This document shows positions 15,480-28,404 of a stretch of 64,000 bases of DNA, piece after piece; positions within the stretch are counted from its first letter, which is position 1, and every line of letters begins with the position of its first letter. Location: positions 2,108-66,107 of the forward strand of contig JBDLIC010000002.1 in NCBI GenBank assembly GCA_039715075.1, read 5' to 3'. Origin of the DNA: Nitrospirota bacterium. GTDB taxonomy: Bacteria; Nitrospirota; Thermodesulfovibrionia; UBA6902. A program made the translations under genes and the position numbers. Under the pieces are notes generated by a model. The model made no database searches, was not told the DNA's origin, and saw only the letters and a program-made list of their open reading frames with translations.

Positions 15480-15814
15480 ATAAGGAGATATTCATTTCTC
15501 TTTTCCTGTAATCCTGCGAAACGTCTCTGTCCACTCCTTCCAGACAATATCAAAATCCGGAAGATCTTTAAGGGTCCTGCCAGGCATTCCTGTTCAATTC
15601 CCTGAGATCGGCAGATGTGGGCCCTTCTTCTTCAGCCACGCGATGCAGTTCTGCAGTCGTAATCATGTTTTGATCTCCGTGTTAATCAGAAGCCCCCATC
15701 GTCTATTATATTTCCCTTGACGCGGCATTGTTGGATCCAGCGGAGACAAGCCGGTGGCCGTCTTTTTTAAATAAGCCTGTTAAGCTGTCTGTTAATTGCG
15801 CAGCATTCATTTCT

Positions 15815-16957
15815 TTACTGTTTTGTCCCCTCTGAAAGAATATTCAGATATTCTGCATAAACATACCGTTTGTCCCGTTTTCTCCCGGTAATTTCTTTCA
15901 GTATGCCTGCCTTTTCCAGTTGTGCCACCAGAGTCGACGAAGCCTGGAAGGATATATCAAACATCTCTGCTATTGTCTTCACAGCAACATAAGGCATGCT
16001 GTACAGTTTTTCAAGAATGCCGACCGCAAGAGGAGACGATATCTTCTCTTTCCAGAGCAGGTCCCTGTGCCGGGTCTGCAGCTCGAGTATTCTCCGTGCA
16101 GAATCCACCGCATAGTCTGATGTTTCAACAATCCCTTTCAGAAAAAAAGCGATCCACTGTTCGTAGTCGCCATTTTCTCTCACAAGATTCAGCCTGTCAT
16201 AATACTCCTGTCTCAACCGTTTAAAATAATAGCTCAGATAAAGCAGCGGCCGGTGAAGTACTTCTTTCCACATCAGATAAAAAGTTATCAGCAGTCTCCC
16301 CAGGCGTCCGTTTCCGTCCAGATAAGGATGAATAGTTTCAAACTGGTAATGAATCAGTGCACAGTTAATGAGAACCGGCAGCTTAGTGGCAGCATGAATG
16401 TATTTTTCAAGGTCACCCATAGCGGTCTTTGCCTCATTGGGCGGTGGAGGCACAAATGTTGCGTCAGCCAGTGTGCATCCGGCAGGTCCGATCCAGTTCT
16501 GCGACGTGCGTATCTGTCCCGGCTTCTTGTCACCTCCGCGGACGCCTTTCATAAGGACCTTATGTATATCATTTAAAAGCCTCAGGCTCATGGGGAATGT
16601 TTTTAGCCTCTTTGTACCGTAGTTCAATGCACCGATATAGTTCACAACCTCGGCAACATCATTTATATTGTCCGGTTTTCCACCGGTCTCAAATTCAAAC
16701 AGATCTTCGAGGGATGCCTGTGTTCCCTCGATCTGAGAGCTCAGAAGCGCCTCCTTACGTACAAACATGGCTATGAAAAGGTCTATATTGGGAAGAATAT
16801 GCCCGATGCCGTCCAAACGGGCCAGAGACATGTCTGCATTGGAGAGGAGGCCCTGCATGTCTCCGTTTAGTGATATGGCCGGTTTTGGCGGAAGGGGTTT
16901 TGGGATAAAAGCCCTGTAATTTGATGCCTGTCTGATATATGTCCCGCTTCTGTTCAC
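15815..16957 (-). CDS. Fic-family protein (AMPylation-type Fic/DOC domain with C-terminal winged helix)
   Basis: Fic core motif HPYLDGNGRLGRLL (HPFx[DE]GNGR) with a Fic_N-like N-terminus. Confidence 0.85.
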   Translation of the reverse strand: MNRSGTYIRQASNYRAFIPKPLPPKPAISLNGDMQGLLSNADMSLARLDGIGHILPNIDLFIAMFVRKEALLSSQIEGTQASLEDLFEFETGGKPDNINDVAEVVNYIGALNYGTKRLKTFPMSLRLLNDIHKVLMKGVRGGDKKPGQIRTSQNWIGPAGCTLADATFVPPPPNEAKTAMGDLEKYIHAATKLPVLINCALIHYQFETIHPYLDGNGRLGRLLITFYLMWKEVLHRPLLYLSYYFKRLRQEYYDRLNLVRENGDYEQWIAFFLKGIVETSDYAVDSARRILELQTRHRDLLWKEKISSPLAVGILEKLYSMPYVAVKTIAEMFDISFQASSTLVAQLEKAGILKEITGRKRDKRYVYAEYLNILSEGTKQ

Positions 16958-17060
16958 AACACCCCCTTATTCAAGTATTGTGAAATAGTATAGTTGAATT
17001 CAACATGTTATTCAAGTTAAATTGAATAACAGACTTCTGCCTCTACGTTATTCAAATGCA
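16958..17060. promoter_or_regulatory. array of four GTTATTCAA/TTGAATAAC boxes in the Fic upstream region
   Basis: CTTATTCAAGT, GTTATTCAAGT, TTGAATAAC and GTTATTCAAAT lie within ~100 bp directly 5' of the Fic start on the minus strand. A TTGAATTCAA palindrome sits between them. Confidence 0.4.
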
Positions 17061-17062
17061 TA

Positions 17063-17098
17063 TGAATATGATTTTTATCTAAAGGGCAGGTTTGAAAC
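17063..17098. terminator. GC-rich hairpin (GGGCAGG/CCCGCCC) with a flanking T-run, possibly a bidirectional terminator after the 1137-aa gene
   Basis: AAAGGGCAGGTTTGAAACCCGCCCCTACGTTTTTTT. The stem is better paired (G-U) on the minus-strand RNA. Confidence 0.35.
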
Positions 17099-17104
17099 CC
17101 GCCC

Positions 17105-20100
17105 CTACGTTTTTTTGTAATAATCAATAAGCTTGTCTATATAAGGGCAAATGTCTGTTAAAATAATTTTGTTCGTATCCTGAATATAATCACAAATCAT
17201 GTATTGTTTGGTATTCGGCCTGATAAAAAAGCAATAATCACTAAGACTTCTCACCTTCGGCACAAGCTCTGGATAACTAATTTCCAGCAAATCCCTGTTG
17301 AATTTTCTAATTTTCCACCATTCATAGTCTTTTATCTCATCATGACTCTTAACCAGCAGGTCTTTTATTTCTTCTGCACTTTTCAGCAAATCCCTGGATA
17401 ATTGAATCTCTTTTTTCTCTCTCGAAATTTGTTCATATAAATTTGGCAACGAGATAATCACATTAAGATAATCCAGATTGCTTACTTCTTTTGTTTCAGA
17501 TGTGATATCAAAACCATCATCTTTTATTGCCTGAACAAGTTTATCCATAGATTCAGGAGAGAAAATAAAATCTTCTTCTGAGAATTTGTCTTCTCCAAAG
17601 TCCTTTATCACTTGCTTTTTTCTATAGTCATAAAACATGTTATGAAGATAAATAACATCTCTTGATGAATCATAATATTTCTCACGAAAACTGAAATCAT
17701 ATTCAGGAGCTATGTTCTCATGGTATTCAACAATATTAAATTCAAAATTCATAATTGCAAATAACAGTGCATCATTCTTCCCGGTTACCTTAAATATATA
17801 GAGAAGCCTCTTTTGCTCATCAATCAAAATCTGATCAATCGATCCCCGGTCTTTACTTACATGGACCTTATTCACTTTCTTTAATTTCTCGTCAAACAAA
17901 ATAATATTATCGTCTCCAAGCATAAGCCGCGGAGGTGATACCGGCAAAACTGCATAGCTTTCTCCCATGGACTTGACTTTTCTCTGTTTACTTATCGTTC
18001 CCTCATATAAATCAATGGCAGCAAGTCTGCGATCATCCCATTCATCTTCATCAGGGAGATAGATAACGTACAGGTATCTATGGTCATCCGTCAGGAACAA
18101 ACCGTCTTCAAAGTAAGAGTTCTCTTCCAGGTGCAGCACATCAGACAGGTCAAGCTGGGCCAAAACGCTTGAATTCTCACCTTTCAATATAACCCTGATA
18201 TAATGGAACTCGTCGTCAGTATCTTCACAAAGGAAGTGGTATATTTTCTGTATACTATCAGCATGAATCACCTTTTTGAACTTATAGTGAAAGTTGTTCA
18301 GCCGGTATTTCCATGCATTTGTATTTTCAATATTAAATATTATCAGCCAATTAGTGTTATCTATTGATATATCAAAAAATACCTCATCACCTTTGATGCT
18401 TATAAAATCAAAATCTTTTGCAGATTTCCTGGAAAAGGCTTCATTAATATCAGAATTTACAACCACATTTATCGGGACACCCTCTACCGAGTACAAAGAT
18501 GCCAGTTCCTTTTCCACATTCAGAACTGCAGCCCTGTCCTGAATCATATCTCTATACATGTCGGCCCTTTCATTATCACCGTAAAGAAGACTCTTCCTTA
18601 AAGATTCAATATAACTTGCCTGCTGCAACTTACTCATTATGGCTTTTAGCTTCTTATCATTTTTCTTAAATTCCTCTTTTGAAATATAGACCGACTCCTT
18701 CTTGATCATTTCCATGATTTTCTCCGCCCGATTAAGGCTGATATCGTCCTTTTCCATTTGCTTGCAGTAATCACGATATTTCTTTCTACTCGTTTCCACA
18801 CTATATTCATGACGTAATTTTTTTAATATTTCTTCACACCTCATCCTGTTGCGTTTATTTTCATGTTGAGAAAGTACGCTGGATTCTTTTCTAATGAGTG
18901 AATAAAGCTTTTCAGCATTATCAATATTCATATCATCGGACTCGAGCTGACCAAATAAATCTTTGACCCGTTTCCTGGCGATTCCTCTTGCTGTTTCATC
19001 AAACATATTTTTTATTTTCTGATAAGACGTGTCATTATGGAATCCTGCAAATGCATTTTTTAAAAGCTGCTCTGCCCTGTTCATCTCTCCTGTGATGGAT
19101 ATATTCGTAAGTTCAATATATGAAAGCCATGCATCGCGTGCTTTACTCTGCCTGAGCGAGAGCAGGTCCTCATTATCAAGAACAGCTTTAATATGAGGAT
19201 ATTCGTGACCCAACGATTTCAGACTCTCGTTTCTGACCCGCTCCTTCAGCAGTAAAAAAAGCCTGTTAAAAGCAGCCTCATTGTTCCCGGACTCAAGATG
19301 CCTTGATATTTCACTTATCGTATTAAAAATTTGTGATCTTTTCTCTTCCTCAACCGCCTCTTTGATTAGCCGGTCGATTTCATTCCCTTTTTGACGGTCT
19401 TTAATCTTCAATTTTTTCAGAATAGTAAGCCTCGATGATGATTCGGAGGTTCCCGAGTATTCTTTCCAGAGAGCTTCAACTTCATCCTCACTCCGTATTG
19501 CAAGCAGAACTTTTAAAAGGTCTCTTGCATCTTCATATTCAGGACAGATTGATAATGCATTACGCACTTCAGCTTCAGAATCTTCAAAGCTGTTTTGATC
19601 GAATGCACTTCTTGCTCTAATAAGATATGGCTCAGCTTGCGTTATCAATACAGTATTTATATCTCTTCTTAATGCCTCTATACCATCTATATGCCCATCC
19701 AGTCTTTCTGCAAGCTCGAGCATATCATACGCTGCTCGTGACTCTGCTTTCTGGTGAAGAAGGTTTGCATATCGGTAAACGGACTCCTGCTTTAACTCGT
19801 AAATGTTGCACTCCTCAAACAATCCCTTTGCGTCATCAAGCTGATTATTCAGGAAATACAGGTTAGCAAGCTCTTCCTTAACCTCATCACCCATTAAATC
19901 ATCAGGGATGCTTAAGAGTATATCGAGAGCAGTACCATATGCTCCAATCTCTTCTCTTAGAATAGATACTCCTCTCAGAAGCGCAGGTAAATCCTGTTTG
20001 CGATCTATTTCCATATCTGCGAGAACTTCTGTTGCATCATCATAGTCGTAGGTGTCAAGGTACAGTCTTGCCTTATCAATGCAGCCTGCTATCCCGTCGG

Positions 20101-20518
20101 TGTTTATGTTGTCAGGAGAACGGGATTTAACTTTTTTCTTCTTCTGTCTTGCGGGTTTTACGGAATCTGCCTTTCGCAGTCCTGCCAGAACTTTGCGCGA
20201 AAGCTGATGTAATTTGGCATGGCATGCATCAACTAACGGAGTTACTTTATATCGAATCAGAACAATATTTTCATCCCACTCCGTTGGTTCAAGATCAAAG
20301 AGGTCCGGATAGTTTCCGAGAAGATAATTTTGCAGGTTGGATTTAATTCTATACGCCTGTTCTTTGTCTTTATCCGACAGATGAATGTGCGGTGTGGGAT
20401 TTATCTGTTTTATGGCTCTGATAATGATGTCAATAGAAGATATCTTATCATCCGCAAGAATAGCCTCAGCTTTTTTTATCAAGTCATCCCAATTTTCAGG
20501 TCCATTGATGGTCCCCAT
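17105..20518 (-). CDS. large uncharacterised protein (1137 aa) with TPR-like helical N-terminal half, beta-rich C-terminal half and a Lys-rich linker
   Basis: Long intact ORF with no Walker A, no methyltransferase motifs and no nuclease motif I could recognise. TPR-like helices include AYGTALDILLSIPDD...ANLYFLNNQLDDAKGLFEE. It sits between the PglX remnant and Fic. Confidence 0.6.
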   Translation of the reverse strand: MGTINGPENWDDLIKKAEAILADDKISSIDIIIRAIKQINPTPHIHLSDKDKEQAYRIKSNLQNYLLGNYPDLFDLEPTEWDENIVLIRYKVTPLVDACHAKLHQLSRKVLAGLRKADSVKPARQKKKKVKSRSPDNINTDGIAGCIDKARLYLDTYDYDDATEVLADMEIDRKQDLPALLRGVSILREEIGAYGTALDILLSIPDDLMGDEVKEELANLYFLNNQLDDAKGLFEECNIYELKQESVYRYANLLHQKAESRAAYDMLELAERLDGHIDGIEALRRDINTVLITQAEPYLIRARSAFDQNSFEDSEAEVRNALSICPEYEDARDLLKVLLAIRSEDEVEALWKEYSGTSESSSRLTILKKLKIKDRQKGNEIDRLIKEAVEEEKRSQIFNTISEISRHLESGNNEAAFNRLFLLLKERVRNESLKSLGHEYPHIKAVLDNEDLLSLRQSKARDAWLSYIELTNISITGEMNRAEQLLKNAFAGFHNDTSYQKIKNMFDETARGIARKRVKDLFGQLESDDMNIDNAEKLYSLIRKESSVLSQHENKRNRMRCEEILKKLRHEYSVETSRKKYRDYCKQMEKDDISLNRAEKIMEMIKKESVYISKEEFKKNDKKLKAIMSKLQQASYIESLRKSLLYGDNERADMYRDMIQDRAAVLNVEKELASLYSVEGVPINVVVNSDINEAFSRKSAKDFDFISIKGDEVFFDISIDNTNWLIIFNIENTNAWKYRLNNFHYKFKKVIHADSIQKIYHFLCEDTDDEFHYIRVILKGENSSVLAQLDLSDVLHLEENSYFEDGLFLTDDHRYLYVIYLPDEDEWDDRRLAAIDLYEGTISKQRKVKSMGESYAVLPVSPPRLMLGDDNIILFDEKLKKVNKVHVSKDRGSIDQILIDEQKRLLYIFKVTGKNDALLFAIMNFEFNIVEYHENIAPEYDFSFREKYYDSSRDVIYLHNMFYDYRKKQVIKDFGEDKFSEEDFIFSPESMDKLVQAIKDDGFDITSETKEVSNLDYLNVIISLPNLYEQISREKKEIQLSRDLLKSAEEIKDLLVKSHDEIKDYEWWKIRKFNRDLLEISYPELVPKVRSLSDYCFFIRPNTKQYMICDYIQDTNKIILTDICPYIDKLIDYYKKT

Positions 20519-20611
20519 ACTTCAACCCTCAGATAAATATAGTATATAAGGTCAGTCATTCCGGCAGTCCTTAAGCCGGAATCTATTCTTTTGCAAGTCC
20601 TGGATACCGGA

Positions 20612-22637
20612 TCAAGTCCGGTATGACAGGCAGCAGGTAATTCCTTCTCTCTTCCAATATTTTTCATTAGTCAATCCACCGTGTGATTGATAATATAATT
20701 TTGACTCGGGAAGCCAGTTAACAACATTTACTACATTCCCATACCACTTTAATGCTTCTCCGCCGTTTTCGTACAAGTTCCATTTTGCACGAATACAATT
20801 AGTGGTACTTCTATCTACTTCCCAATGAAATCTCATGTATTTATCATTATCGTGAGTTTTAATCCTCCCACCGGATTCACAATGGTTCAATAGGGAGTTA
20901 CTGTCCGTGAATATTTGAAAAACTTTCTTACTCAACCAATAAACAATTGGACTTCCCGGAATCTTCCCGAAATCCTCAGCGCTGGCAGTAAACTTCAATT
21001 TTCCAGCAATTCGATTATCCTTGAATTCCAGCTGCTTTTCCGCTTCATTTCTACCATCTACTATGCGTAAATACGAGCCCTTATGACCAGCCCGAACCTC
21101 CCGCTCCAACACAAAAGCCGTGGTTTGCACAACCTCCCCTCCAATACTATCAAATCCGCGTGGACCCAAATGAGCCATTGAGATAATAGTGTCTTGATTG
21201 AAGATATTTGCCAGCCAAAAACATTGCCTGAACCACAAAAGATATCAAGGTGTTAGCTGTTTTCTTGGCAAATAGATCAGAAGAATTGGCTTGAATATTA
21301 AGCACCGCTTGTAATGAGGGAATCCGCCCAACAAGTTTATCTGACACCCTCGTTAAAGACCCAAAAGTCTTTCCATGTTCAAACAACTCAAGAAGATCTT
21401 TTATATCCTGTTTACTAACACCTGAAATTACCTTAGTCAGATTATTTACTATCTCATCTACATCTAATCCTTTACTTTCCTGTATAGCCATCACATTCAT
21501 CTTTGGTAGGTCATCACCATTCAATATTCTTCTGTCATCAGCCCGTGCTTTCATTAGCAATGCAAACCCAGCCATCTGTGCTGCGCGATCATCAATATCA
21601 AGTCCGTAAAGATTTTTCTCAAGTATCAGTCTCGGTATATCCTTTGTCCTGTATCCTCGCTCAAGATAGATCTCCTTGAACAGATCATATGCTTCAACAA
21701 GTATATGCCCCGATCCACAGGCAGGATCCATAACTGTTATTTCTTCCGGATTCAGTGATTCAGGAGTTATCTCTTTAAGCTGTCTGTTTACTTCCTCCGT
21801 CTGCCCAGCAGGTTCTATGTAATACTCCATCTTCTCTTTTATCTTTGAATCAGGATAGGTCATGAGCCACTTTCGCCCGAGGCTGTTCTGCACCATATAC
21901 TTAACTATCCAGTTCGGAGTAAAGAGCTGTGTTGCAGCAGGGACATCCTCACTTTTAACAACCTTACCAATAACCTGGTCCTTCTTCTCAGATATATAGA
22001 ACTGATAAAGCCAGCCAATAATCTCTACTTCCTTCCAGTCCACTTCATCTATCTCTGTCACCAACTTTCTGACTAATGAATCAGAATGAAGAAGGTTCTC
22101 AGGAAGCAACAGCTCTGTCTCATCATCAATCTTTTCAAAGAGAAAAGGCATCGCTTTATGAAGGGCATTACACTGGGCTACAAGAAGCATCCGGTAAAGC
22201 CCTGCATCTTTATTGCCATCAAGCTTAAGCTCTACAACCTTCTCCTTATCAAGACCGGGAAGATCCACCTTCGCAGCCTGCTCCAGTATCTCAGGAATAT
22301 GGCTTCCTCCCGGATGGCTCAATACTCTATACCCATGACCAAGATAATCATGAAGCTCCATGTACCTCAAAGCAAGAAATCTGTTAAACCAGGTATAGGC
22401 AACCGCCTCCATCACCTGTCCAAAGCCCTCACGCTCAATACGCTGATCAAGCCCCTTCCTTTTTTCCGCAACCTTTCGAGGCCAGGCACGGCCAGATATA
22501 ATCGCTACATCACCTTTTTCCTCAACAGACTCTATTGATTTTTCAGAAAGGCCAAGGAGATTCGCCCGCTCTGTTACTGCGCGGATAAAATCCCGCCTTG
22601 CCGCAGGGGCGTATGACTTTAATCTGGATTTATTCAT
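20612..22637 (-). pseudogene. pglX: BREX PglX (BrxX)-like N6-adenine methyltransferase, disrupted
   Basis: Two pieces: a 495-aa ORF (22637..21150) and a frame-shifted 208-aa ORF (21238..20612) that starts with TTG. The N-terminus MNKSRLKSYAPAARRDFIRAV...AYTWFNRFLALRYMEL and motif I DPACGSGHILVEAY are PglX-like. No NPPY/F motif IV is found and total length is well below the ~1200 aa typical of PglX. Confidence 0.55.
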
Positions 22638-22638
22638 T

Positions 22639-23097
22639 GTCTTCCATTTATCTTCCCCGCCCTTGATGGGAGGGGACTGAGGGGAGGGTGTTTAAATGCA
22701 TCGCTCCCGTATAACCTCTAATGCTCCTTCCATATTTAACAATATTTCATTATTCCAGAATCTTAGCACCTTAAAGCCTTCTTTCTCTAACCATTCGTCT
22801 CTTCCCCTGTCTTTGCTATTATCCATATGCTGTCCACCGTCTACTTCTATGATTATCTTTTTTTCAAATGACACAAAATCGACTATATATTTTCCGATGG
22901 GTTGTTGACGCCTGAATTTAACGTTGTTAATTTGCTTCGCTCTCAGTTTATTCCACAACAATCTTTCAGCATCCGTTTGCTGTTTTCTCAGATTTCTGGA
23001 CAGGGTAGTTAAATTATCATTCATTAAATTCACCCCCACCCTAACCCTCCCCCCTCAAAGGGGAGGAAACTTTCTGCACAGATAAAATTCTGTTTTG
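22639..23097 (-). mobile_element. ~460-bp mini-element carrying a DUF559 endonuclease gene, inserted into the 5' end of the pglX-like gene
   Basis: It is flanked by a ~35-bp near-identical duplication (22603..22637 and 23098..23135, GGGC[G/A]TATGA[C/T]TTTAATCTGGATTTATTCAT), which includes the pglX-like start codon. The termini are imperfect G/C-rich inverted repeats (CCCCGCCCTTGATGGGAGGGGACTGAGGGGAGGGTG vs CACCCCCACCCTAACCCTCCCCCCTCAAAGGGGAGG). Confidence 0.65.
22692..23039 (-). CDS. DUF559 (Vsr-like) endonuclease-domain protein
   Basis: Typical DUF559 motifs YIVDFV...IIIEVDGGQH...DRGRDEWLEKEGFKVLRFWNNEI in a 115-aa protein. Confidence 0.8.
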   Translation of the reverse strand: MGVNLMNDNLTTLSRNLRKQQTDAERLLWNKLRAKQINNVKFRRQQPIGKYIVDFVSFEKKIIIEVDGGQHMDNSKDRGRDEWLEKEGFKVLRFWNNEILLNMEGALEVIRERCI

Positions 23098-23126
23098 TCG
23101 CCAGGGCATATGATTTTAATCTGGAT

Positions 23127-24536
23127 TTATTCATTTATTACCTTAATTGGAACGAGCAGCCTGTTTTCATGAAATAATGCAACATTCTCTTTCCGTGCAA
23201 GTTTTACCATAGCGACAGTAAAGCCTTTTTTACTGAATAAGCAGAAATATTCTTTTCTTGCCTTGTCGCCCCACCGCACCTTCCTGCTTTTTTCTTTGAG
23301 CTCCTCATAAATATTTATACCAACCAGCTTTGCTGACCATTTGACCTCACAAAAGAGAATGGTATCATTGTCCCTGTTGAGCGCAACAAGATCTATCTCT
23401 TCATTGTTGTCCCACCATCTGCCGATTGCCGAAAAAGGAAAGAGCTTTTCCATGTTCTGCCAGAGCGTTTCAATAGCAACTTTTTCATAGATAGCGCCAA
23501 GATACTGAGGCAGGTCTTTCCTGACAATATCAATGACATCCTTCACACGTCCCATTTCAAGCTCCCCGCGCTTAGGGAATATAAACCTGAACCAGAACAG
23601 AAAAAATTCATCGGTTATCCGGTACAGCCCCTTTTTACTCTTTAGAGGCTTTTCTTCCGTAACAGGTAATTCTCTTTCGACAATCTTAAGATCGGCAAGA
23701 ACGCTGAGATATTTGTTTGCAACAGGCTGGTTGATCCCGGTAGCATTGACGATCTCTGAAAGTTTTCGTTTGCCATGAGCGATGGCCTGAAGCAAGGCAA
23801 AATAATAACGCGGTTCGCGAAGCTCTTCACGAAGAATAAACTCCACCTCGTCATAGAGCATTTCTCCTTTTTTCATGACGTGATCTGTCAGGTTCTTCTC
23901 AAAGTCTTTCTCAGAAGAGAGTTGAAGCCAATATGCCGGTGTCCCTCCGGCAATCGAGAAATGGGCCAACCGGTCAGCAAACGGTTTTCCTGCACGAAAT
24001 TTACATGCTGAAGAAAAAGGCATGGGATCCACGCGCCACTGTCCGGTCCTTCTCCCATAAAGCGGGGAACGGTAACCCATCACCTCATTTTCCATCATGG
24101 CCATGCTTGAGCCCAGGAGAATTACATATATGGATCCATTGCGCCAGTATTCATCCCAGGCTTTTTGAAAAAGACTCGGGATTGCGGAATTCGACCATAT
24201 GAGATATGGAAATTCGTCTATTACGAGAACAAAACGTTGTTTTTTTGCCTTTATATACTCAAAACTCTCTTCCCATCCCGTAAATCCCCTTGTCAGAAGG
24301 AGCGGCTCATTATAAAATCGGCCAAGGGCCTGAGAGAACCGGAACAGCTGATCTTTTTCATTAGTATTTTCAGACAGGAAATAGACATGGGGCTTTCCTT
24401 TAATGAACTGCTTTGTCAGCTCTGTCTTACCGACCCGGCGCTTGCCCCATAGTACGACAAGCTGCGCCTTCTGCTCTTTCCACTTTTCTTCAAGAAAAGC
24501 CAGCTCTTTTCCCCTGTCAATGAATTTCATGCGCAT
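23127..24536 (-). CDS. AAA+ ATPase of the archaeal-ATPase (PF01637-like) family with a C-terminal DUF234-like domain
   Basis: Walker A GKRRVGKTEL near the N-terminus, Walker B VLVIDEFPYL, and a DUF234-type C-terminal region. Its stop overlaps the duplicated copy of the pglX start. Confidence 0.7.
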   Translation of the reverse strand: MRMKFIDRGKELAFLEEKWKEQKAQLVVLWGKRRVGKTELTKQFIKGKPHVYFLSENTNEKDQLFRFSQALGRFYNEPLLLTRGFTGWEESFEYIKAKKQRFVLVIDEFPYLIWSNSAIPSLFQKAWDEYWRNGSIYVILLGSSMAMMENEVMGYRSPLYGRRTGQWRVDPMPFSSACKFRAGKPFADRLAHFSIAGGTPAYWLQLSSEKDFEKNLTDHVMKKGEMLYDEVEFILREELREPRYYFALLQAIAHGKRKLSEIVNATGINQPVANKYLSVLADLKIVERELPVTEEKPLKSKKGLYRITDEFFLFWFRFIFPKRGELEMGRVKDVIDIVRKDLPQYLGAIYEKVAIETLWQNMEKLFPFSAIGRWWDNNEEIDLVALNRDNDTILFCEVKWSAKLVGINIYEELKEKSRKVRWGDKARKEYFCLFSKKGFTVAMVKLARKENVALFHENRLLVPIKVINE

Positions 24537-24894
24537 GCCTCCGGATATACTTTAGAGTATTATACTCTTAAGTATATAAAAAAGAACAGTCCCCGAATTT
24601 CTATTAACAGGATTTTCTATTAACAAAGCCCCGCTCCCGTTACCCAAAAAAATATGGAGGTTGAACCTCGATAGTTCGTCGATATTTCTTGATTATTATA
24701 TAAAAGTCAGGGAATGCATAAGAAGATAAGTATTACCAAAATAAGCAGTTCTCCCCTCTGCTTCAAATTATATGATGAATTACTGAGCCTGTCAAAAATG
24801 ACAGGTCATTTATCCATGTCTAAAATTCTATAATTGATGTTCCGGGTGACAAATAGTGCAAAATCTGAAAGGCGAAAAAGTCAGGACTGCTCCT

Positions 24895-25122
24895 TTAATT
24901 CTTTTCCGGCCTCCAACACATCTTTTTAGTATTAACCATATCATCCATAGTATCCAACAATTCCTGCAAATCGTCCCTGGACAAACCCAGTTTAATCGGA
25001 TGATAACTGGTCGTATCAATATACAGACGTTTTTTTGACCGGGAAACAGAAAACTCCCACGCATCAACCTGTTTAATTGTTATCTCATCTTCAACATCTT
25101 CTTTGGGTTTATTCCGGTGCAT
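24895..25122 (-). CDS. hypothetical small protein (75 aa)
   Basis: ORF with a good RBS (GAGGTGA) 6 nt upstream of ATG. No recognisable motif. Confidence 0.35.
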   Translation of the reverse strand: MHRNKPKEDVEDEITIKQVDAWEFSVSRSKKRLYIDTTSYHPIKLGLSRDDLQELLDTMDDMVNTKKMCWRPEKN

Positions 25123-27903: not shown

Positions 27904-28019
<116 letters not shown>

Positions 28020-28105
28020 AAACTCTTATTCAAAGAGGTAAGATGATAACATTAAATTTATATAAAATGCAAACAGGAAATTCCATGTCTGCAATTTTTA
28101 TTTTC

Positions 28106-28181
28106 TGGTGGAGGTGAACGGGATCGAACCGATGACCTCCTGCTTGCAAAGCAGGCGCTCTCCCAGCTGAGCTACACCCCC
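28106..28181 (-). tRNA. tRNA-Ala (anticodon TGC)
   Basis: Reverse complement GGGGGTGTAGCTCAGCTGGGAGAGCGCCTGCTTTGCAAGCAGGAGGTCATCGGTTCGATCCCGTTCACCTCCACCA. It has the G3:U70 Ala identity pair and an encoded CCA. Confidence 0.9.
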
Positions 28182-28327
28182 AAAAATTTGTGTAACAAAT
28201 TTTAAGTTTACAGTTATCAGTGAACAGTACTTAGTATAAACCAGAGCCATTTCAAAAATCAAAACCATCAACTGCTAACTGTTACCTGTCAACTGCAAAC
28301 TCCAAATTTGGCAGAGCCAAATTTGAA

Positions 28328-28404
<77 letters not shown>

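Follow-up and report, generated by a model that had tools for sequence, protein, structure and literature searches.

The probable remains of a decayed type 1 BREX locus and its surviving cargo genes in a Nitrospirota metagenome-assembled genome

The question raised by the present locus is which defence system, if any, is encoded by an island of approximately 10 kb (15.5-25.4 kb) in a metagenome-assembled genome (MAG) of a Nitrospirota bacterium, in which a broken methyltransferase gene of the bacteriophage exclusion (BREX) type lies among unrelated genes. The island belongs to a stretch of 64,000 nucleotides (nt) from assembly GCA_039715075.1 (contig JBDLIC010000002.1, positions 2,108 to 66,107), herein called the window, and positions refer to the window unless another locus is named. 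The island genes, all on the minus strand, comprise an ATPase_2/DUF234 gene, a DUF559 cassette, the broken BREX-1 pglX, a gene for an orphan protein of 1137 amino acids (aa), and a SoFic-type fic gene (Table 1). The open reading frames (ORFs) named in the first-pass annotation are real and lie where it had placed them, on the minus strand; its gene list had missed the DUF559 gene in the interval between the ATPase gene and pglX. Housekeeping genes are located on either side, namely metK, ahcY and a DUF885 gene at the left border and ftsY and ATP-synthase genes at the right border. No tRNA gene and no integrase gene was found at the island edges, and the sole tRNA genes of the window lie at 28.1-28.4 kb. 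Herein, we propose that the island probably represents the remains of a recently decayed type 1 BREX locus, whose unrelated cargo beside pglX survives.

Several lines of evidence were obtained. First, a curated model identifies the pglX fragment as a genuine member of the BREX-1 PglX family. The 495-aa ORF scored 612 bits against the NCBIfam model BREX_1_MTaseX (NF033452; model positions 1-508 of 1210), and this fragment alone exceeds the curated cutoff of 500 bits. Motif I (DPACGSG) is kept in this fragment, consistent with the PglX-like N-terminus and DPACGSG motif described initially. The 208-aa ORF aligned to positions 580-789 of the same model. The full-length PglX (1180 aa) of the complete BREX-1 locus on a plasmid of Polaromonas sp. 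JS666 (NC_007949.1) was used as the reference, and tblastn placed its residues 1-499 at 22637-21204 and its residues 572-759 at 21205-20636. The gene had been described as split into a 495-aa piece and a frame-shifted 208-aa piece, and both pieces indeed map to one reference PglX in different frames. The two pieces abut exactly in the DNA, and the internal deletion is seamless, with approximately 72 codons (~216 nt) removed. The NPPY motif of the reference (residue 505) falls inside the missing segment, and no [NDS]PP[YFWH] motif occurs in any forward frame of the remnant, which bears out the absence of NPPY reported earlier. In addition, reference residues 760-1180, corresponding to the last ~420 codons, have no counterpart at the window pglX. 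A double hairpin resembling a repetitive extragenic palindromic (REP) element lies exactly at this truncation point, and a copy with 82% identity over 67 nt was found in the intergenic region downstream of brxC in a related locus, L004 (L004:3467-3533). As a separate observation, two short hairpin elements recur across the intergenic regions of this lineage, namely GTCATACCGG...CCGGAATGAC and GGGGCGGGTTTCAAACC(C/T)GCCC, and the latter sits right after stop codons (window 17083-17105; L003:256-279).

The amino acid identity of the pglX remnant was 84% to the PglX of L004, 71% to that of a second related locus, L005, and 60% to that of Polaromonas, and the nucleotide identity to the L004 gene was 86% over 1294 nt. 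For the 430 intact N-terminal codons compared with L004, the ratio of nonsynonymous to synonymous substitution rates (dN/dS) was 0.078, with a dS of 0.70. Because this ratio indicates strong constraint through most of the divergence, the inactivation of pglX looks recent. Programmed frameshifting or phase variation of pglX was considered and rejected, as 72 residues including NPPY are physically missing. The window derives from a MAG and a repeat element is present at one junction, and the lesions might accordingly be viewed as assembly artefacts, that is, chimeric joins or collapsed repeats in an organism with an intact BREX-1 system. This explanation is highly improbable. Three independent rearrangements, namely the internal deletion, the 3' truncation, and a DUF559 insertion with a diverged 65-nt duplicate, are found within 2.6 kb, the contig runs into housekeeping genes on both sides, and one arm of the duplicate has diverged to 82% identity, which is not produced by assembly errors.

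Second, none of the other tested BREX core genes was observed in the window. The whole window was searched using tblastn with proteins of three loci, and no BrxA, BrxB or BrxC was found (Polaromonas BrxA, BrxB and BrxC; L004/L005 BrxA and BrxC), with nothing below an E-value of 0.04; the sole weak match of the Brx queries was a generic P-loop similarity to the ATPase gene. Two PglZ sequences likewise found no pglZ in the window, and no PADLOC PglZ match was obtained for the island proteins. The absence of BrxA, BrxB, BrxC and PglZ claimed in the first-pass annotation is thereby upheld. For BrxL, no PADLOC match was observed among the six island proteins, and no BrxL reference was run on the rest of the window; BrxL is in any case missing from approximately 24% of type 1 BREX loci (PMC12839542). 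The nearest relatives of the pglX remnant are located in canonical BREX-1 loci, with BrxC encoded upstream and PglZ downstream where the contig allows. Compared with the type 1 order brxA-brxB-brxC-pglX-pglZ-brxL, as represented by Polaromonas, L004 and L005, the window shares a BREX-1 PglX and cargo on either side of pglX, but differs in having no brxA, brxB, brxC or pglZ and in having a frame-shifted pglX without motif IV and the C-terminal third. Because pglX has been inactivated twice and brxA, brxB, brxC and pglZ are gone from the 64 kb, this locus cannot be a functioning BREX system, and neither methylation nor exclusion proceeds from it. The term "BREX remnant", one of two options offered earlier, is therefore apt, being supported by the curated-model PglX, the canonical BREX-1 relatives, the two inactivating lesions, and the lack of any other tested core gene in the window.

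The other option was that the split PglX belongs to an undescribed system that still works, acting with the 1137-aa protein, with or without the Fic protein and the ATPase, while the large protein replaces BrxC, PglZ and BrxL. The genes are co-oriented and tightly spaced, the order of pglX followed by the large gene also occurs in another locus (L003), and the 430 N-terminal codons of pglX are intact and conserved. However, the remnant has lost NPPY together with ~72 residues around it, a continuous reading frame, and ~420 residues at its C-terminus; because the PglX lacks motif IV and the C-terminal third, no methyltransferase-based system works here. The junctions, an out-of-frame join and a REP-like element, look accidental, and canonical BREX-1 loci are where the relatives of pglX occur. 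The large protein, for its part, has relatives that accompany systems without PglX (type IIG, Dpd, and DISARM/Dpd-like), and it contains no recognisable domain that might stand in for BrxC, PglZ or BrxL. The fic gene is equipped with a promoter and an operator of its own and belongs to a known single-gene system. Thus, the proposed replacement of the canonical partners is not supported, and such a system is very unlikely indeed.

Third, the unrelated genes of the island resemble the cargo carried by other BREX-1 loci. Foreign genes adjoin pglX in every related BREX-1 locus fetched: a MazE/PIN pair lies between brxC and pglX in L004; an IS21 element within pglX and four genes before pglZ are present in L005; and Xre/RES genes together with three genes, including one for a 1620-aa AAA protein, are present in Polaromonas (L037). 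The L005 locus (L005:12663-15349 and 15599-20667) is another case of BREX erosion and cargo, as its pglX (856 aa) is cut by an IS21-type element (rve and IstB) and an HSP70-like gene is among the four genes between pglX and pglZ. According to a 2026 survey, auxiliary effectors embedded in BREX loci are widespread (PMC12839542). By analogy, the ATPase, DUF559 and large orphan genes would fit this pattern of embedded cargo, as perhaps would the fic gene. In the history proposed herein, the ancestral BREX-1 locus would have carried unrelated cargo genes in slots beside pglX, as its relatives do, with the ATPase-nuclease fusion gene abutting the start codon of pglX and the 1137-aa gene immediately 3' of pglX, as in its 83% identical relative. 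A DUF559 mini-cassette would have entered the 5' end of pglX, duplicating 65 nt and regenerating a start for the gene. The first lesion, the ~216-nt deletion, took out motif IV (NPPY) and caused the frame shift, and a second lesion, at the REP-like hairpin element, took out the last ~420 codons. The surviving genes would be autonomous, with each product acting alone.

The two genes upstream of pglX record part of this history. The 469-aa protein, which had been called an AAA ATPase, is an ATPase with a Walker A motif (P-loop GKRRVGKT), although of the ATPase_2/DUF234 type rather than classical AAA+, and it carries a nuclease-like D...ExK motif at the C-terminus. In addition to Pfam ATPase_2 and DUF234, it matched the PADLOC candidate PDC-S27 (E = 2.6e-45), an unvalidated family of archaeal-type ATPase_2-DUF234 proteins, from which the window gene differs in having abutted pglX. 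The protein of the DUF559 gene scored well above the gathering cutoff of 20.6 bits for PF04480, and the gene is flanked by G/C-rich sequences (CCTCCCC...GGGG). A 65-nt direct repeat brackets the DUF559 gene, with arms at 23071-23135 and 22574-22638 that are 82% identical and 497 nt apart from start to start, and both arms are copies of the first ~21 codons of pglX. The ATPase gene is taken to have originally abutted pglX directly, because its stop codon shares nucleotides with the ATG of the degenerate upstream copy. From the arrangement of its repeats, the DUF559 unit looks like a mini-cassette that inserts into gene 5' ends and supplies a replacement start.

The fic gene encodes a SoFic-type Fic protein. 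SoFic is an experimentally studied single-gene defence toxin (PMC12249575), and the window protein shares with Shewanella and E. coli SoFic (PMC12249575) the Fic_N and Fic domains, a C-terminal winged helix-turn-helix (wHTH), the HxFx(D/E)GNGRxxR motif (HPYLDGNGRLGR at residue 210), and the inhibitory alpha-inh motif (S/T)xxxE(G/N) (SSQIEG at residue 73). Weak HTH_13, MarR_2 and SoFic-like_C matches were obtained for the C-terminal HTH (residues 309-366). The PADLOC SoFic model was matched at 394 bits over model positions 5-360 of 361, whereas the NCBIfam SoFic equivalog model NF046030 gave 181 bits, below its cutoff of 550. By these scores, the window protein is a divergent relative of SoFic and not an equivalog. 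As a SoFic-type toxin, it would AMPylate its targets and abort infection. The operator-like fic promoter suggested at first pass was recognized, in that TTATTCAA sites, two of the three palindromic, precede fic and the array overlaps a pair of -35/-10-like elements (17015-16987). The Fic protein probably represses its own gene through binding of the C-terminal wHTH to the three TTATTCAA operators. Directly downstream of fic (15492-15810, minus strand), short ORFs of 34, 32 and 31 aa were observed in differing frames, the first of which begins 5 nt after the fic stop codon. An AS1-like small antitoxin has been reported downstream of E. coli Sofic (PMC12249575), and the short ORFs could be a decayed gene or an antitoxin of this kind.

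The 1137-aa protein is the least familiar product of the island. It is 100% identical to the NCBI entry "hypothetical protein ABFR82_00555" and has no Pfam match at E < 0.01 and no NCBIfam or PADLOC match, and no ATPase, phosphatase, nuclease or protease domain was recognized, in agreement with the earlier statement that it contains no recognisable catalytic motif. In the N-domain (residues 1-120), N40, P41, Y56, K59, L62, Q63, L66, C99 and H100 are identical in all of 75 aligned sequences, and AlphaFold2 (AF2) with the 75-sequence alignment predicted three helices, three strands and one helix with a local confidence (pLDDT) of 87 and a global template-modelling score (pTM) of 0.76; using Foldseek, no match to this fold was found in the PDB (best E 0.24) or in BFVD (best E 0.16). 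Residues ~140-675 were predicted as an alpha-solenoid resembling tetratricopeptide repeats (TPRs; pLDDT 75-85), with 34 PDB matches at E <= 1e-3 which, among the matches listed, were mostly TPR or solenoid proteins. The best of these were scaffolds such as the TPR domain of OGT, subunits of the anaphase-promoting complex (APC/C), and Ctr9 (E 1e-5 to 1e-3), which lack counterparts of the N-domain, the beta-rich region and the C-domain of the 1137-aa protein. A profile search of the PDB with a 26-member alignment also gave TPR and pentatricopeptide repeat (PPR) matches only. The description of the protein as TPR-rich thus stands for the predicted structure and the Foldseek solenoid matches, but not for Pfam: no TPR model matched the 1137-aa protein at E < 0.01, and a faint TPR_14 match was observed only on two homologues (P0004 and P0128). 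Residues ~680-970 are beta-rich and poorly predicted, and residues ~975-1095 form a helical C-domain that is not in Pfam and recurs in proteins with patatin, trypsin, WD40, TPR or TcA-toxin domains. A combined 98-sequence alignment misaligned the C-domain proteins, and the structure prediction did not draw on this alignment.

The family of this protein is rare, with fewer than 10 close members among ~15 billion proteins. A word-indexed search of 5.8 billion proteins gave only four real homologues, and when 1.84 billion representatives were searched exhaustively using HMMER with the alignment of these four, 324 proteins were obtained at E <= 1e-3, 36 of them at E <= 1e-30. Searches for related loci with the four-member alignment were negative for species-representative genomes, JGI metagenomes and IMG/VR, viral contigs yielded no relative, and a protein search with the 26-member alignment gave no further homologues. 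The N-domain (NPT...Y..K..LQ...ACH, ~100 aa) also heads P0171, P0180, P0181 and ~20 other proteins, which are from high-GC genes, 1200-1450 aa in length, and match Pfam models for TPR only; because it heads this separate group of large proteins, the N-domain defines a wider uncharacterised superfamily. The GC content of the 1137-aa gene is 33-40%, compared with ~45% in the flanks, which points to a horizontal origin.

What this protein does in the island was approached through the genomic contexts of its relatives. The closest relative (83% aa identity) is in L003, where the stretch homologous to the window has exactly the limits of the 1137-aa ORF. Upstream of the homologue lies a gene whose end encodes a PglX C-terminus (positions 1104-1170 of 1174 in the PADLOC PglX model), and the L003 homologue looks as if it follows a complete pglX 3' end; because it does so, the order of pglX followed by the large gene is taken to predate the deletion in the window. 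Four other close relatives (36-44% aa identity) were also informative. One follows the C-terminus of a type IIG restriction-modification protein (L034); one follows DpdJ-DpdK-DpdD, a PD-(D/E)XK protein and an NT5C-like protein (L033); one lies in a DISARM/Dpd-like locus with an SNF2 helicase, a split DrmMI methyltransferase, an LmuB-like ATPase and a DUF3800 protein, and is followed by a phospholipase D (PLD) nuclease (L002); and one lies near UvrD/PD-(D/E)XK and BrxC/SspC-like ATPase genes (L035). The initial suggestion that homologues might recur beside PglX or Fic genes is therefore correct in part: they recur beside DNA-modification defence loci generally, not specifically beside PglX, and Fic is not recurrent. 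The downstream gene varies, encoding Fic in the window, a 444-aa protein in L001 and a PLD nuclease in L002, and no conserved partner was observed. The C-domain was also considered as an adaptor shared with an effector, as in a pair of the effector-associated domain (EAD) type, and this was rejected, since a hidden Markov model of the C-domain found only the large protein in the window, L001-L003 and L033-L036. Two other C-domain proteins have no partner in their neighbourhood, and their contexts are uninformative and housekeeping-like. The comparison with L003 gave a dN/dS of 0.30, indicating purifying selection; synonymous sites were saturated against the 44% identical homologue in L001, for which dN/dS was not computable.

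The homologues in L003 and L035 are interrupted. An in-frame stop occurs at codon 125 in L003 (L003:340-3804), in a lysine-rich linker between the N-domain and the solenoid, and separate ORFs of 234 aa and 856 aa occur in L035 (L035:4295-7698), with the break again between the N-domain and the solenoid. These genes may be pseudogenes, or they may reflect a natural split between the N-domain and the remainder.

The 1137-aa protein might instead be a non-defence passenger, a general protein-interaction scaffold like its Geomonas paralogues in a variable, horizontally acquired region, leaving SoFic, and perhaps the ATPase-nuclease, as the only defence genes of the island. We give this explanation a minor but real probability. 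The 27 loci of the distant clade, from Geomonas and related Geobacteraceae, have no PglX, Fic or DUF559 neighbours, the protein has no catalytic motif or PADLOC match, interruptions are present in two of the close homologues, and the contexts of two other C-domain proteins are housekeeping-like. On the other side, all the informative contexts of the close clade (at least 36% identity) contain restriction-modification-like defence genes, directly upstream in four, the dN/dS value indicates that the gene has been maintained, and the close clade is set apart from the Geomonas clade by a C-domain common to patatin, trypsin, TcA-like and WD40 proteins. A tie of the distant clade to PglX or Fic was considered and rejected, as it has neither neighbour and no conserved partner; the sole recurrent cluster consists of generic histidine kinases. 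The proteins of this clade, 950-1010 aa in length, have the N-domain, solenoid and beta region without the C-domain.

The cargo hypothesis for the 1137-aa gene is preferred herein. The gene and its 83% identical relative are directly 3' of pglX, a position typical of the accessory genes embedded in BREX-type loci (PARIS, toxin-antitoxin modules, nucleases), and other relatives, placed inside type IIG, Dpd and DISARM-like loci or at their ends, likewise resemble embedded accessory genes (PMC12839542). The protein differs from the described accessory systems in that no nuclease, ATPase or other effector domain is recognisable in it and none of them is related to it by sequence or fold. Because the protein combines recognition-type repeats with two small conserved modules and has no NTPase, nuclease or protease, the model suggests a sensor or scaffold. 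Such a cytoplasmic, non-enzymatic protein would be accessory to DNA-modification defence loci and would act alone, with the TPR solenoid and beta-rich region providing recognition and the invariant N-domain and the C-domain providing output or partner contacts. A role as a candidate accessory gene in phage defence, for example as a backup guarding modification systems, is plausible but unproven. A bolder version, to which only a small probability is assigned, is that the C-domain clade represents a new anti-phage or "guard" module of one gene, which moves together with BREX, type IIG, Dpd and DISARM-like systems, senses a phage product (e.g. an anti-restriction protein) through the TPR and beta regions, and signals through an N-domain fold not in the PDB or BFVD.

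Several points weigh against the proposed decay of a BREX locus with surviving defence cargo. That the other BREX genes were lost is deduced from not finding them within 64 kb, with BrxL checked in the six island proteins, and a second, intact BREX locus may be present elsewhere in the genome. The proposed self-regulation of fic is read from the sequence of its operator repeats. The putative defence role of the 1137-aa protein depends on approximately five independent neighbourhoods, no effector activity is assignable to it, its beta-rich region is of low confidence, and two close homologues, in L003 and L035, are interrupted. Moreover, the neighbours of the distant clade (L006-L032; Geomonas, Geomesophilobacter, Citrifermentans and Geobacter MAGs, with 2-3 copies per genome) are varied and show no defence context, comprising histidine kinases, methyl-accepting chemotaxis proteins, and dehydrogenase or metabolic genes.

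Some further features were observed in the surroundings. The 930 nt that separate ftsY from the ATPase gene contain an unassigned 75-aa ORF with a good ribosome-binding site (24895-25122, minus strand). In a promoter scan, promoter-like sites in the region were no commoner than in shuffled sequence, and the sigma-70 consensus listed in Table 1 is a consensus match only. Outside the island, tRNA-Ile(GAT) and tRNA-Ala(TGC) genes are followed directly by a 5S rRNA gene (27904-28404, minus strand), and no 16S or 23S rRNA gene was found by Rfam anywhere in the window; this group may represent an unlinked or remnant rRNA operon.

Table 1. Positions of the features of the island in the 64-kb window.
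Feature	Position	Strand	Description
SoFic-type class II Fic AMPylase gene, 380 aa	15815..16957	-	Pfam Fic_N, Fic; C-terminal wHTH
Operator-like array upstream of fic	16967..17068	-	Three TTATTCAA-containing sites (16967, 17008, 17048) at 40-41 nt spacing
GGGGCGGGTTTCAAACCTGCCC hairpin	17083..17105	-	Directly after the stop of the 1137-aa gene; same element after the pglX stop in L003
1137-aa orphan gene	17105..20518	-	N-domain, TPR-like solenoid, beta-rich region, helical C-domain, short tail
REP-like double hairpin GTCATACCGG...CCGGAATGAC	20551..20615	-	Exactly at the pglX truncation point
pglX piece 2 (reference residues 572-759)	20636..21205	-	ORF 20612-21238, 208 aa, other frame
pglX deletion junction	21204..21205	-	~72 codons gone (reference residues 500-571, NPPY included); frame shift
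pglX piece 1 (N-terminal domain, motif I)	21204..22637	-	ORF 21150-22637, 495 aa; runs on out of frame to 21150
DUF559 gene (Vsr-like endonuclease fold), 115 aa	22692..23039	-	Pfam PF04480, 136.5 bits
Degenerate copy of the first ~21 pglX codons	23071..23135	-	MNKSRLKSYALATKQNFICAE, then out of frame; upstream arm of the 65-nt direct repeat
ATPase_2 + wHTH + DUF234 gene, 469 aa	23127..24536	-	Pfam ATPase_2, DUF234
Perfect sigma-70 consensus TTGACA-17-TATAAT	24767..24795	-	~230 nt upstream of the ATPase gene, just downstream of the 75-aa ORF

Thus, the island would provide a worked example of the death of a BREX locus, in which the core is lost and the cargo, comprising the Fic toxin, the ATPase-nuclease, the DUF559 cassette and the large orphan, stays. 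The DUF559 insertion and the 65-nt duplication of the pglX start hint that methyltransferase genes of defence systems are targeted at their 5' ends by such mini-cassettes. Moreover, the family of the 1137-aa protein combines a confidently predicted N-terminal fold, unmatched in the PDB and BFVD, with a recurrent place beside DNA-modification defence genes, and it represents a reasonable candidate for accessory-defence screening.

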